In this document: one piece after another, positions 50,026-57,468 of the stretch
How the letters are laid out: each line of letters begins with the position of its first letter
How positions within the stretch are numbered: position 1 is the stretch's first letter
Virus record (IMG/VR): IMGVR_UViG_3300018719_000038
Coordinates: 1 to 62,664 of that record
Direction: 5' to 3' (one strand)
Source of the DNA: a virus
Taxonomy: Duplodnaviria; Caudoviricetes
Length of the DNA: 62,664 bases
The notes under the pieces: generated by a model
The model's database searches: none
Seen by the model: only the letters and a program-made list of their open reading frames with translations
Told to the model about the DNA's origin: nothing
Position numbers and translations under genes: made by a program

Positions 50026-50811
50026 CTAGAAATTGAGCGTTGGGTCTTCGTCTGCCGGCGGCGCATCTGCGTCGGACGGAGTGCCCGCTGCGGCCCCGAT
50101 CGACAGGCCAAGGCGCGAAATATCGAATCCAGCGATGACCAGGTTCTTCGTTTGCTCCTCTTCGTCGGCTACGTACAGGCACGTTTCGAAGTTCGCGAGG
50201 TCGAACGGCTGCTCCCCGATCTTGGCGAAGTTGGCGCGCTCCTCTTCCGTTAGGTCACGTTCAGGCTTAACGATGGCATTGAGCGAAACGACTGCGTTAG
50301 TTCCTGCGCCCTTTTTCGAAAGTTTGAACGCGATTACGTCGAGGTCGTCGATATTATCTTCAATCGCGGATTTGAGCGTAGCCTCCTGCTTCGGACTCAG
50401 GTCGACTACGATATCCCGGCCGGACGTCAGATCGTAGAACGCGCGAAGATAACGTTTCTTACCTTTGTACAGATACGCCTCGTCCGTAATTTTCTTGACG
50501 TCCTCTTCGCTCGCGCCCGCTTCTTTAGCTGCGTTTGCTTCCGCGTAAAGAAGGTCGGCCGCCTTGTCCCATACGGAATGGCCGCTCTGAACGAATCCCT
50601 TTGCGTTACGTACGGGCGGATTCTTAGGAACGAACGTGTTAACTTTGCCGAACATGCCGTAGCCGAAGTACTCCGCGACATCGTTAATCGACTTGACGCC
50701 GACCTTATACGTGCTGCCGGACTTGAATGATACGATCGGACTATCCTTCGCGCTGCCATTGTCCGTACTTGCTGCGGCTGCTTCTGCGCCCATTTTCGTA
50801 AAAATAGACAT
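50026..50811 (-). CDS. Putative single-stranded DNA-binding protein
   Basis: 261 aa in replication module; K.SKKGAGTN motif; acidic tail ending DEDPTLNF. Confidence 0.65.
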   Translation of the reverse strand: MSIFTKMGAEAAAASTDNGSAKDSPIVSFKSGSTYKVGVKSINDVAEYFGYGMFGKVNTFVPKNPPVRNAKGFVQSGHSVWDKAADLLYAEANAAKEAGASEEDVKKITDEAYLYKGKKRYLRAFYDLTSGRDIVVDLSPKQEATLKSAIEDNIDDLDVIAFKLSKKGAGTNAVVSLNAIVKPERDLTEEERANFAKIGEQPFDLANFETCLYVADEEEQTKNLVIAGFDISRLGLSIGAAAGTPSDADAPPADEDPTLNF

Positions 50812-50819
50812 TCGATCAC

Positions 50820-51158
50820 GTTCCTTTTCTTCGATTTTTGCGAGCGGCGGTCGTTTCCGTACGGCGTGGAATCCGCGGCCGCTCTCGCGGATCGCAATGA
50901 TGCGCAAATTTTCGGACATAGGATTGCGCGCATGTACGCGGGCCCTGCGCACACTTGCGGCTTACTCTTAGGCGTAGCACATACGGACGGCGATTAAGCC
51001 GATTACAGTCGCCCCACGCATGAGGCGGACACAACCGTAAGATAAACGCTACTTTTACGCGTCGAGAAGGTATACTCCCGATAATGCGCGGCTCCTACGC
51101 CCGATATGTCGCAGCAACCGGAAAGTTACCGCAACACGGCCGACGCAGGAATCGGCTT
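50820..51158 (-). ncRNA. Candidate structured RNA / long structured leader
   Basis: Nested stems with many G-U pairs that form only on the minus strand (see findings). Confidence 0.6.
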
Positions 51159-51695
51159 TTATACGATCGCTGCGTATCCTTGCGCAAGCAGCGTCAATTC
51201 ACGTTTCTCTTTCGTGATCCCGGCGTTAATCTCACGAATCTGCAGCTCGACTGCGTTCATTCGCGCGGTCAACGCATTACGGCGCGATTCAGTCCGGGCC
51301 TTTGCGATCGCCAGGCGAAGGGCGGCCGCCTCCTGTTCGAGTGGGGCGCGTTTCGCCAGCGCTTCGACTTCCGCCTTCAATACCGCGACTTCTTTGCGTT
51401 TTACCTCGCGGCCAACTGCGGCGGCAACTGCAGACACGGCCGGTGCCGGAATCTCCGCCTTCATCACGGTTAGAATCGCGCTATCGATCAAATCCGCGAT
51501 GATAATTATTCCGGCTTTGGCGAACATTCGGCCGTAAGTGCCATCGTCAGCCAACGAATTACATACGTATTCCGCGGCGGCCATGTGCTGATTCGCCCAG
51601 CTTGTGGCCTGCGCCTTATCGACGCCGAACCTCTCGGTGATTCGGCGAAGGGCGTGCGCGGTTAAGCGCCATCTCTGCGTTGGGTTCGTGCTCAT
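51159..51695 (-). CDS. Hypothetical protein (DUF4258-like N-terminus, coiled-coil C-terminus)
   Basis: LTAHALRRITERFG...AILTV. Confidence 0.65.
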   Translation of the reverse strand: MSTNPTQRWRLTAHALRRITERFGVDKAQATSWANQHMAAAEYVCNSLADDGTYGRMFAKAGIIIIADLIDSAILTVMKAEIPAPAVSAVAAAVGREVKRKEVAVLKAEVEALAKRAPLEQEAAALRLAIAKARTESRRNALTARMNAVELQIREINAGITKEKRELTLLAQGYAAIV

Positions 51696-52078: not shown

Positions 52079-52729
52079 TTAGACCGCTAAGTAATCGGAA
52101 ACATCTCCAAAACGATTGGCGTCGTATTGGCGAGCTAACTTCCGAAGCTTGCGTTTAGCTGTCTCATGATGGATACCGATCGATTCGGCTATCGCGGTAT
52201 CCGAAGCGCTGGGTGGCGCAAAAAGAAATGCTTCGACGATGGCTGTCGTCGTGGCGTCGGGTTTTCCCGAATGTTTCAAGAAGTCGATCAGTTGGCGCTG
52301 GTCGTCTTCTTTTTTTCTGCATAAGTTTGGCATCGCAACCTCTTCGGCAGACGGCTCCTCCGGTGTGGGGTACTTTGGCGAGTACTCACCGGATTCATTA
52401 GCGACCGTCTCATCGAGCGAGCCCGGGATTCTTTTTCGTCGTCGGCCGTTACCTCGGAAAACCATTAGTCGCTTCCGTAGCAACGCGGACGATAACGTCG
52501 TAGCGAAGTTCACTAGGTCGTCCCTTTCTGACAATTCCCATATCGCGTTATCAAACGTCTCCTGGGCGCTGTGCTCATCACGACAGCCTCTGCTTATTAG
52601 GGAATCCCGGTGCATCCTACCGAACATCGACTCCGCGAGACGGTACATCCGATTGAATGCGTCCGCTGTCCGCTCGGCTCGATAAGCTGCGTGCAAACTA
52701 TTAAGTTGTTCAATACTCAAAAACGTCAA
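52079..52729 (-). CDS. Phage sigma-70-like factor
   Basis: Region 2-like helix, SLD, C-terminal HTH TAIAESIGIHHETAKRKLRKL. Confidence 0.7.
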   Translation of the reverse strand: MTFLSIEQLNSLHAAYRAERTADAFNRMYRLAESMFGRMHRDSLISRGCRDEHSAQETFDNAIWELSERDDLVNFATTLSSALLRKRLMVFRGNGRRRKRIPGSLDETVANESGEYSPKYPTPEEPSAEEVAMPNLCRKKEDDQRQLIDFLKHSGKPDATTTAIVEAFLFAPPSASDTAIAESIGIHHETAKRKLRKLARQYDANRFGDVSDYLAV

Positions 52730-53080: not shown

Positions 53081-53168
53081 GTCTTGAGGGCAGCGAGGGC
53101 AAATCTAAGGGTTTGCCTTGCGGTCCAGTTGCCAAAACGCCAACTATCGACATTATACGCCTTTGGTT

Positions 53169-54113
53169 CTACGCTGTCATCATAAAATTTACCAATGGCC
53201 TATAAATTTCCCTCGTTTTTCCCAACTCTATCATTCTCGCCTCGGTCGGGTCCTTAAACCCGTGGGGCACTAGCGCAATCTCTAACCGCATCCGATCCCG
53301 CAAGCTCTCCGCAATCTCATTGCGCCAGGCTCGTCCGGCCGCGTCATTATCTCGCAAAAGTACAAGCGTTTCGATAGGACTCCGCAGTATGAGGTCGCGT
53401 TTTTTTTCGTTAAACGCCGCCCCACCGGTCGCAATCGCAGGCACTCCGATCGTCCAGAGATAAAGCGCATCGATTTCGGCCTCGACCGCAACGGCCCGTT
53501 TTATTCGGCGACGATGAATGACGTCGATTCCGTAAATTAAATTGCGGACCTGCGTTCCTTCTGCGTGGAACCAAAACCTTTTCGCGTAAGTTGTCCGATA
53601 CTTTACCGTCAGCAGTCGGCCGGCAGCGTCGAACCACGGAATTGTCACGGCGCGGCTCTGCGGATCGTATCCCGTTCGGAATAGCGCCTGAACCTCCGGA
53701 CTTATTCCGCGCCCCGTAAGGTAATCGGAATGATGCGTTGCGTATGTGTCGAGTAGCGAGTCAGCAAGCTTTGGTCGTGCGGGGGCCTTGGCGGTGGGCT
53801 CTCGTAGGTGAAGCGTTATGTAGTCCGCCGGGCCGTCGCGCTCATTATCCGTAAGTAGCCTTCGTGCTTCTGATTCGGAGATGCCGCGTAACAAGGCAAG
53901 TAGTTGAACGGGGCCGCCGCGCCGACGGTTCGGATCGGTTGCGCCGCTATCTACCCAGCAACCGAAAGCCGGGTCGTCTGGGTTCGTTATGACGCGGAAG
54001 GATGGTCGGTCGTCTCCGGGGCGAAAAGGCGAGCTGGCTTCGAGCTTTCCGGTATAGGGGCGCAGGTTGCGCCATGGGTAACGCTCGATTTCCGCGAACA
54101 AAGTTTCCAACAA
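53169..54113 (-). CDS. dnaG: DNA primase (TOPRIM)
   Basis: SPFR..DDRPSF, YLTGRGI, VEAEIDAL, DNDAAG, KDPTE. Confidence 0.9.
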   Translation of the reverse strand: MLETLFAEIERYPWRNLRPYTGKLEASSPFRPGDDRPSFRVITNPDDPAFGCWVDSGATDPNRRRGGPVQLLALLRGISESEARRLLTDNERDGPADYITLHLREPTAKAPARPKLADSLLDTYATHHSDYLTGRGISPEVQALFRTGYDPQSRAVTIPWFDAAGRLLTVKYRTTYAKRFWFHAEGTQVRNLIYGIDVIHRRRIKRAVAVEAEIDALYLWTIGVPAIATGGAAFNEKKRDLILRSPIETLVLLRDNDAAGRAWRNEIAESLRDRMRLEIALVPHGFKDPTEARMIELGKTREIYRPLVNFMMTA

Positions 54114-56048: not shown

Positions 56049-56247
56049 GTATACACTTTGCTGGGTAATATCAATAAATCCATAATTAATTTACGTTTTT
56101 TGTATACTACCCATTGTATACTACCCAAGCCTTGGACCGAGTTAGCGATCTGGTGTACGTACAGTCGTACGACCTAGGCCCATGGGGTCCGGAGAATGTA
56201 TACAAAAATAGAGCTGAAACTGGATTTCTAATAAAAGAATGTATACA
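56049..56247. repeat. GTATAC repeats and abutting palindrome cluster
   Basis: GTATAC x5; tandem TTGTATACTACCCA x2; AGAATGTATACA x2; palindromes 56154-56193. Confidence 0.8.
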
Positions 56248-57074: not shown

Positions 57075-57468
57075 TGCGTTCCTCCTTTGTAAATAAGTCT
57101 ACCCCTTACCTGTTCGGCCGTCTATACAAGTTCGATACCTACGAATTGCGGTTGACAAACGCGTTTCTATGGTGTATAGGATTGTCCTTTTTCTTCCTGA
57201 ATTAAGAGTAGCGGAAGAAATCATCAGTTTCCAGACAAAGATTTTGCGAAAATTTTGTTCTTGATTTCTGATTGAAAATATGATATTTAAAATCCCATTA
57301 TTAGGGAAATGTAATTATAGTTGTTAAAATAATACCGTTTATCGATGTGCCCGGTGCAATTTTCTCATTTCTAATTACATTATTAAATTTTTCTAATAGG
57401 CCGATCCTGGATACTAATTTTATTATTTTACCTTAGTTTAGTGGTAGGGGAGAACGATGTGTGGATAT

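Follow-up and report, generated by a model that had tools for sequence, protein, structure and literature searches.

We report here a structured mRNA leader in a complete 62.7-kb provirus of Paenibacillus (IMG/VR record IMGVR_UViG_3300018719_000038; the whole stretch of 62,664 nucleotides (nt) that was analysed is called the window hereafter). The leader occupies a non-coding gap of 347 nt on the minus strand (50812-51158(-)), between an open reading frame (ORF) at 51159-51695(-) and an ORF encoding a protein that resembles single-strand-DNA-binding proteins (SSB). The comparison with related loci shows that this gap encodes a structured sense-strand leader that a family of Paenibacillus (pro)phages has conserved, and that its invariant core, named M1, is one long hairpin following closely on the upstream ORF. 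Partners can be swapped in the lower part of M1, and both of the resulting states track sequence changes among the relatives. Behind M1, the leader is, as judged from the sequences, a mosaic of optional modules and not a single fold. An earlier note on the window had predicted a structured RNA of ~340 nt ahead of the SSB-like gene: a conserved structured leader does lie there, while the idea of one fold has to be given up, the modules being optional and the stretch from M1 to the start codon ranging from 30 to ~360 nt among the relatives (30-41 nt in 12 loci).

Protein-guided searches yielded, after removal of duplicates, 59 distinct loci including that of the window; the relatives are Paenibacillus genomes and one Brevibacillus. 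In the window, M1 spans 51094-51149(-) and comprises an 8-base-pair (bp) lower stem P1 (51149-51142 with 51101-51094), a G-G mismatch, an upper stem of 16 columns of which 14 are paired in the window (51140-51125 with 51118-51103), and a variable apical loop. When complete, it is one helix of ~25 bp, that is 24 paired columns and one mismatch. A covariance model of M1 built from seven sequences was run on the 58 other loci; 53 of them gave a sense-strand match ahead of the homologous gene, the score being higher on the sense than on the antisense strand in every case; the match is only partial in L016 because of an apical insert of ~100 nt. Five loci were missed by the model, namely the Brevibacillus locus L015, which has a 30-nt gap and no M1, L071, with an upstream sequence of only 86 nt, L021, which scores 13.7 bits with filters off and by eye resembles a divergent M1, and L075 and L076, which by eye resemble an M1 with a large apical insert. 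Apical inserts span from 10 to >100 nt among the loci.

M1 was aligned in 54 sequences using MAFFT, an alignment that was not fitted to the structure. Over the 24 pairs, 92.6% of the cells are paired against 80.1 ± 0.5 in shuffles, and 20 of the 24 pairs show changes on both sides against 11.8 ± 1.7 in shuffles, neither value being reached in any of 500 shuffles; covariation in homologous regions was a check that the earlier note had called for. Sliding the partner by one to three columns lowers the pairing to 28.6-47.4%. G-U cells outnumber A-C cells 182 to 49 (3.7-fold), which bears out the statement of the note that the G-U pairs favour this strand. The G-G mismatch between the lower and upper stems is kept in 49 of the 54 sequences, and the pairs beside it are near-invariant (CG in 52, GC in 52 and CG in 53 of 54). 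As for folding energy, the first hairpin taken alone (51090-51152) reaches -36.4 kcal/mol (z score -5.61, equalled by 0 of 200 shuffles), against -11.8 kcal/mol (z +1.02) for its complement. The whole gap folds at -137.1 kcal/mol, weakly above chance (z -1.85, 7 of 100 shuffles equally good; z +0.45 for the opposite strand), so that the comparison with shuffled controls singles out M1 and not the gap as a whole. All the stems quoted in the note are present in the window where it had placed them, and two of them, UCCUGCGUC/GGCGUAGGA and a 13-bp stem, together constitute M1 and are thus backed by covariation. Rfam 15 gave no match at the gathering score for the window and none at E ≤ 10 for 50700-51300; together with the strong covariation, this agrees with the proposal of a novel structured phage RNA. 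No indication of a self-cleaving ribozyme was obtained, no Rfam 15 family being matched. Finally, a conserved peptide is excluded because the lengths of M1 and of the leader show no bias towards multiples of three (23/14/17 and 24/12/18, respectively, by length modulo 3).

Of the five host genomes, four (5.7-6.7 Mb) have M1 at one place each, and the Brevibacillus genome has none. A match was also obtained in eight of 151 sampled Paenibacillaceae genomes, and an SSB-like gene is located at most 1.5 kb away in five of the seven new M1 loci of this sample. In a gene-blind pattern scan of viral contigs, four true M1 and 76 chance matches were found among the 80 matches listed, and the four true ones among the matches listed all fall within this phage family (three known contigs and a new one, L150). 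The M1 covariance model marks the locus in prophages, with one copy per genome.

The partner exchange involves four short regions. State A is the pairing of region 1 with region 2, which completes the M1 helix of ~25 bp, whereas state B combines the pairings of region 0 with region 1 (0:1) and of region 2 with region 3 (2:3). Region 2 (UCGGGCGUAGGA, 51093-51104(-)) is the 3' strand of the lower M1 stem and has either region 1 or region 3 as its partner. Region 3 (UCCUAUGUCCGA, 50912-50923(-)) closes, through its pairing with region 2, the domain formed by the modules M1b and M2 described below; its equivalent in minimal leaders is the GYCCG that opens the A-rich stretch. Region 0 (GCCGA, 51152-51156(-)) begins 2 nt past the upstream stop codon in the window and forms with the UCGGC of region 1 a small state-B hairpin, which is present in the free minimum-free-energy (MFE) fold. 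The 2:3 duplex of the window (12 bp, -20.0 kcal/mol) is also chosen by RNAfold in the MFE fold. The two states are nearly isoenergetic in the window, with -149.2 kcal/mol for state B and -146.7 kcal/mol for state A, a difference of 2.5 kcal/mol. Of the 54 loci, 17 have a lower stem with a predicted probability under 0.2, 15 one between 0.2 and 0.8 and 22 one over 0.8; for the upper stem, the median probability is 0.9.

Both state-B pairings follow the sequence changes among the relatives. In own-versus-swapped tests with 5000 permutations, not corrected for kinship among the loci, duplexes of a locus's own strands are more stable than swapped ones for 0:1 (-10.35 versus -9.28 kcal/mol) and for 2:3 (means of -13.63 versus -12.51 kcal/mol), and none of the 5000 permutations was as low in either case. 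Region 0 varies along with alignment column 10: where this column is U, region 0 reads GYCGA in 16 loci, GYCGG in 8 and neither in 17, and where it is C, GYCGA is found in no locus, GYCGG in 9 and neither in 4. Matched 2:3 variants include UAGGA with UCCUA, UAAGA with UCUUA and CGAGC with GCUCG. When region 3 is located by a neutral motif rule, column 183 of region 2 faces it as A-U in 14 loci, G-C in 10, G-U in 10 and A-C in none; 11 further loci show a non-pairing letter and 9 have no motif, so that a wrong site or no site was picked in 20 of 54. Against its M1 partner, column 10, the same column gives 10 C-A mismatches; region 3 therefore fits column 183 better. This better tracking disfavours a target-site duplication as the source of the likeness between regions 1 and 3. 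Masking of the ribosome-binding site by an anti-Shine-Dalgarno sequence, UUCCU in region 1 or UCCU in region 3, was also considered and rejected because loci with other region 1 or ribosome-site sequences show no complement; a consistent pairing of region 1 or region 3 with the Shine-Dalgarno sequence was not found, L008 and L038 being without any complement.

The modules following M1 differ between loci. M1b was compared with RNAalifold in five loci. Its first part, M1b-a (51057-51091(-)), is a CGCG/CGCG helix around the hairpin UCGGGAG/UUCUCGA (51081-51062), a stem already quoted in the earlier note; three of its five inner pairs stay paired through changes on both sides, so the relatives speak for it, and more variants can be seen among the leaders. 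The second part, M1b-b (50973-51052(-)), is branched and closed by GUAGC/GCUAC, a helix with three pairs changing on both sides; it holds a local CGGC/GCCG hairpin and the stems UUACGGU/ACUGUAA and CGCCUCA/UGGGGCG, these inner stems being partly conserved and hence in part borne out. The multibranch domain of ~160 nt within one RNA, into which the earlier note had gathered such stems, finds no support, as the leader is modular among the relatives. Its closing helix of 9 bp, AAGCCGAUU/AAUCGGCUU, is not conserved: L040 and L016, the closest relatives, retain the 5' half AGCCGAUU without a partner, and the CGGC of the partner strand sits in the window in the local hairpin, which is common to the relatives. 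Likewise, GCGCAA/UUGCGC lacks its partner in relatives and clashes with conserved pairings, while the stem GUGUGCGC/GCGUACAU is supported by them.

M2 (50921-50967(-)) consists of a conserved GUAAG, a 3-bp lower helix, a hairpin (50954-50932) and a conserved GCGCAAUCC. It is present in 18 of 54 loci, and additionally in L150 and as a bare hairpin in L016. In the 18 loci, 104 of the 108 cells of its six-pair stem are paired, compared with 23-51 of 108 in slid controls. Each of the 18 loops, which measure 7-9 nt, contains a palindromic hexamer (GUCGAC in 9, GUGCAC in 7 and GGGCCC in 2, the window and L040) preceded on its 5' side by purine (G, GA, GC or A); an A follows it on the 3' side in 15 of 18, L019 having a G and the window and L040 nothing. 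The loop of the window is AGGGCCC (50946-50940), 7 nt long. Neither the M2 hairpin alone (z -0.68) nor the M3 stretch alone (z -0.54) is exceptional by energy.

M3 (50842-50892(-)) is a predicted H-type pseudoknot that ends 16 nt from the Shine-Dalgarno sequence. Its first stem, S1, is AUCCGCG/CGCGGAU, the loop GAGCGGC pairs with GCCGCUC to give S2, and a UUCC/GGAA hairpin lies in between. The earlier note had recognized both pairings and they are supported, though jointly, as a pseudoknot, and not as alternatives to one another. S1 occurs in three sequence variants with one-sided changes that preserve pairing, and S2 in three variants including the matched loss of one base pair in L026; these variants were read from the sequences of five loci, and no formal count is given since MAFFT places the S2 strands out of register. 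A different small pseudoknot, M4, was seen by eye just upstream of the ribosome site in loci without M3 (L040, L074, L002, L006, L025, L030, L003, L042 and L023), with a GGCGGA (or AGCGG) loop facing a nearby downstream UCCGCC (or CCGCU).

Every leader ends in an A-rich ribosome-binding stretch. In the window, this initiation region covers 50812-50841(-), with the Shine-Dalgarno sequence AAGGAA at 50826-50821. The fraction of A at positions -35 to -1 is 0.43 in the window and 0.40 on average in the 54 loci, versus 0.28 ± 0.09 at 37 other ORF starts of the window, and UAAA is found in 37 of 54 leaders versus 6 of 37 controls.

The genes around the leader run on the minus strand, and the leader is tied to the start of a replication-gene block. 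The upstream ORF (51159-51695(-)) encodes a protein of 178 amino acids belonging to phrog_5083, of unknown function, and for 31 of 57 related loci tblastn found a homologue of it. In the window, 9 nt separate its stop codon from M1 downstream; in the 11 loci whose match reaches the C-terminus, M1 begins 8-42 nt past the match. The neighbourhood matches Bacillus phage 268TH002, in which a primase/helicase, regulators, a sigma factor and small ORFs precede the 'ssDNA binding protein', an endonuclease and the DNA polymerase. ORF 52079-52729(-) of the window (216 amino acids, no Pfam or PHROG match) corresponds in position to the annotated RNA polymerase sigma factor of 268TH002, a phage that also has an AimR (arbitrium) regulator close by. 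M1 was not detectable by the model in 268TH002 (L100), and no DNA-level match to the gap was found in phage records. The SSB-gene homologue of 268TH002 has a GC-rich gap of its own (L100:3740-3886, 148 nt) with a CUGGCGG string and a AUAUUAAAAC-type A-rich end, which may be an analogous leader.

The leader seems to be internal to an operon because neither a sigma-70-type promoter nor an intrinsic terminator was found on the minus strand within the gap. A strong sigma-70-like promoter match (ATGACA, 17-nt spacer, TATAAT; 11/12) is located at 53152-53180(-), ~2 kb upstream of the leader, and may drive the operon that contains it. The longest inverted repeats of the window are two 30-nt, AT-rich repeats with 73% complementarity, at 57308-57381 and 56062-56113, which are candidate operator, origin or attachment features. 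The inverted-repeat finder scores Watson-Crick pairs only and did not list M1, so that it is unusable for other long RNA helices.

At least one ORF lies between M1 and the SSB gene in nine of the 54 loci (L039 (953-1498), L023, L050, L052, L058, L059, L064, L079 and L051). One insert is an ORF of 181 amino acids that weakly matches an AP2 domain (E 0.02); a small basic ORF of ~44-71 amino acids is found in five loci, and L050 and L052 contain longer ones. The new contig L150 (6515-7504) shares the upstream gene, M1, M1b, M2 and the A-rich stretch, and here they are followed by a protein of 251 amino acids that is only 24% identical to the SSB-like family of the window (hhalign probability 95.8%, E 7.5e-9); it is rich in Cys and His over one stretch and likewise ends in the acidic ...DEDLPF. 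The arrangement resembles a mosaic exchange whose junction is at the ribosome site.

The downstream gene (50026-50811(-)) encodes a protein of 261 amino acids (phrog_6883). Its ATG start (50811-50809) is conserved, the homologues all beginning with MS.FTK, and is preceded in homologues by AAAGGAAC. An AlphaFold model computed from 102 diverse homologues, with a predicted local distance difference test score (pLDDT) of 89.1 and a predicted template-modelling score (pTM) of 0.83, replaced an earlier model from 11 sequences (pLDDT 50.8), which had given nothing at E ≤ 0.001 with Foldseek. The four best Foldseek matches of the new model are T4/RB69 gp32 cores (1gpc, E 7.8e-4, probability 0.99; 0.97-0.99 for the best three). 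A second aligner, VIA, gave gp32 Z values of 6.7, 6.5, 5.5 and 5.4 over 164-178 residues, the next match dropping to Z 4.5 with 51 residues. Two Bacillus phages have homologues that carry the annotation ssDNA binding protein, and the tail of the protein is acidic with F as its final residue. PF08804 provides a weak lead, being found in 18% of the members of the nearest named Atlas cluster and matched by one of the 102 family members (E 0.0057). Pfam gave no match for the protein of the window, and a profile search of PDB sequences returned nothing meaningful. Taken together, these moderate matches suggest that the downstream protein is gp32-like and distantly related to gp32.

That an SSB can control its own synthesis through its leader is textbook knowledge for T4. 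According to PMC535899 and PMC3014915, the operator of T4 gene 32 consists of a pseudoknot and, behind it, an A+U-rich stretch with UUAA(A) repeats; the mRNA is very stable and is processed by RNase E at a site 71 nt ahead of the start codon. By analogy, the leader could work like that of gene 32, a reading that we prefer tentatively, at somewhat less than an even chance. In it, the polycistronic transcript would be cut or trimmed near M1, and the downstream RNA would refold to state B, providing a structured, protective 5' end for the SSB message. SSB in excess of single-stranded DNA would then nucleate at the structure beside the ribosome site, M3 in the case of the window, and spread over the A-rich unstructured stretch, thereby blocking its own translation. 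The layout of the window, a predicted pseudoknot and then an A-rich ribosome site, is shared with the gene 32 operator as described in PMC535899 and PMC3014915. An autoregulatory SSB leader, the other proposal of the earlier note, is thus plausible.

Several observations count against this gene-32-like control or against parts of it. Region 0 is recognizable in 33 of 54 loci. When the 2:3 covariation is assessed on the protein tree it is not significant, in a test that is underpowered (4 independent pairs, p 0.25-1; 2.2 pairs change in the same direction and 0 in the opposite one). M3 is found in five loci only, and 12 minimal leaders carry M1 alone. The leader of the window itself is without UAAA, and the unstructured stretch of ~30-37 nt is shorter than that of T4, given as >40 nt in PMC535899. 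The fold match of the downstream protein to gp32 is moderate (template-modelling (TM) score 0.34-0.43). Moreover, M1 is not strictly an element of the SSB gene because in the nine loci with inserted ORFs it is these that M1 and the A-rich stretch head, and a tight co-adaptation between protein and RNA is unlikely because the leader of L150 precedes a family member with 24% identity. As far as the sequences go, the inserted ORFs, the optional pseudoknot and the divergent SSB of L150 weigh against a tight SSB-specific operator.

The closest competitor, unlikely yet deserving serious consideration, is that M1 serves processing and stability only, either as a target of RNase III or, once RNase Y has cut, as an obstacle to 5' and 3' exonucleases. 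The SSB message would then have a stability of its own, independent of the upstream gene, region 2 would refold onto region 3 after cleavage, and SSB would not be involved. The length of the M1 helix is kept while its sequence changes, it makes up about two helical turns as RNase III sites need, and an enzyme that reads only the duplex would be indifferent to the apical inserts of 10 to >100 nt. M1 also heads whichever ORF follows, and the 2:3 pairing supplies a ready 5' stem after the cut. In PMC11780869, RNase III of B. subtilis is described as cutting inside long duplexes, with a staggered cut that leaves a 2-nt 3' overhang. A need for duplex length, however, does not explain the near-invariance around the G-G mismatch, nor does processing explain the pseudoknots and the A-rich stretch by the ribosome site, and there is a single M1 site per genome.

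Another factor could set the A/B switch, be it a ligand, a phage protein (e.g. the upstream 178-amino-acid protein) or ribosomes finishing the upstream ORF; we regard this as decidedly unlikely, and equally so the coupling of SSB synthesis to upstream translation that it would bring about. Two mutually exclusive pairings that both track sequence changes speak for such a switch, region 0 starts 2 nt past the stop codon in the window, and the conserved unpaired GUAAG and CAAUCC of M2 resemble ligand or protein pockets; yet the modules with these conserved unpaired strings are optional, no Rfam riboswitch is matched and no consistent pairing of region 1 or 3 with the Shine-Dalgarno sequence was found. 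The stop-to-M1 distance of 8-42 nt further means that a terminating ribosome cannot reach regions 0 and 1 everywhere, which weakens a trigger by ribosomes at the stop codon. A transcription attenuator was also rejected, the gap having no terminator-like site on the minus strand and region 3 being followed by a run of A and not of U.

That the M1b-M2 domain is a separate non-coding RNA, released and acting in trans after pairing with itself via the palindromic loop, is very unlikely. The 2:3 helix would delimit a compact domain, a palindromic hexamer in three variants is present in all 18 M2 loops of 7-9 nt, and the layout is that of the dimerization loop of human immunodeficiency virus 1 (HIV-1), with its palindrome GUGCAC, as given in PMC7357161. 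This module is nonetheless restricted to 18 of 54 loci, plus L150 and the bare hairpin of L016, and the gap has no promoter- or terminator-like site on the minus strand. A DNA-level element, such as a replication origin, a hairpin for priming on single-stranded DNA or a recombination hotspot, is extremely improbable: although M1 is single-copy and lies in the midst of primase, SSB and polymerase genes, DNA hairpins tolerate G-T pairs, the palindromic M2 loops are also DNA palindromes and the modules appear shuffled among phages, the 3.7-fold excess of G-U over A-C indicates one strand, the coding sense, half-sites 10 to >100 variable bases apart misfit a dimeric DNA-binding site, the gap showed neither iterons nor an AT-rich stretch for unwinding, and the pseudoknots and the constant link to a ribosome site are messenger-level features.

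Beyond the gene-32-like control that we prefer, a bolder scheme can be drawn, which we consider a long shot. The leader would represent a new class of phage RNA switch in which the two foldings gate a self-complementary kissing loop through which two SSB messages, or processed leader fragments, pair with one another; together with the binding of the gp32-like protein, this pairing would set the level of the replication proteins. If true, the kissing-loop switch would be the first retrovirus-style dimerization loop in a bacteriophage messenger and, combined with gp32-like binding, the first gene-32-type autoregulation beyond T4-like phages. Whether other Ssb proteins autoregulate likewise is stated to be not known in PMC535899, and the present locus provides a testable case of gene-32-type control in temperate phages of Gram-positive bacteria, with a distant gp32-like protein and an unrelated RNA. 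A partner-exchanging core combined with plug-in modules is also useful for the study of RNA switches and of the evolution of regulatory RNAs by module exchange, and bacterial messengers rarely have a hairpin loop that exists in three variants, all of them palindromic.

In the literature found, such a leader is not described, and only work on T4/RB69 and unrelated papers turned up. The leader can nevertheless be compared with several known systems. The mRNA leaders of lambda cIII and hok are bistable, and the present leader shares with them two mutually exclusive foldings, both evolutionarily maintained, but differs in that no pairing to the Shine-Dalgarno sequence was found. RNase III processing hairpins are located between phage genes, for example in T7 and SP82. 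M1 resembles them as an intercistronic duplex of >20 bp with an internal mismatch and an apical part free to vary; in contrast, there is one M1 per genome and not several, the surroundings of its mismatch are strongly conserved, and its cleavage is putative.

The M2 loop recalls the dimerization initiation site of HIV-1, where, according to PMC7357161, the palindrome GUGCAC stands between conserved purines. The M2 loop, of 7-9 nt, likewise contains a GC-rich palindrome of six bases with a 5' purine in 18 of 18 loci and a 3' A in 15 of 18; its GUGCAC variant is the HIV-1 palindrome given in PMC7357161, and the M2 palindrome changes yet stays palindromic. M2 differs by its place in a phage mRNA leader and not in a retroviral genome, by being optional and by its putative dimerization, and the loop of the window has 7 nt and a purine on the 5' side only.

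The likeness to gene 32 of T4/RB69 lies in the position as the 5' leader of a gp32-type SSB gene, in the predicted pseudoknot of the window directly 5' of an A-rich, little-structured ribosome-site stretch, and in the UAAA elements of 37 of 54 leaders. PMC3014915 describes the polycistronic T4 gene 32 RNA as processed just upstream of the structure, a step that would have its counterpart here. On the other hand, no sequence or structural homology between the two was found and this leader has no Rfam match. It is far larger and modular, with a switching hairpin of ~25 bp as its core versus the 28-nt pseudoknot of T4; the pseudoknot is optional (M3 in five loci, M4 in others) and the unstructured stretch is shorter. 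The hosts here are Gram-positive and the phages temperate, and repression by the protein is presumed by analogy. The leader forms a new RNA family within a general kind that is known, the cis-acting phage mRNA leaders; its unusual traits are a core helix that exchanges partners and an M2 loop that is always palindromic.

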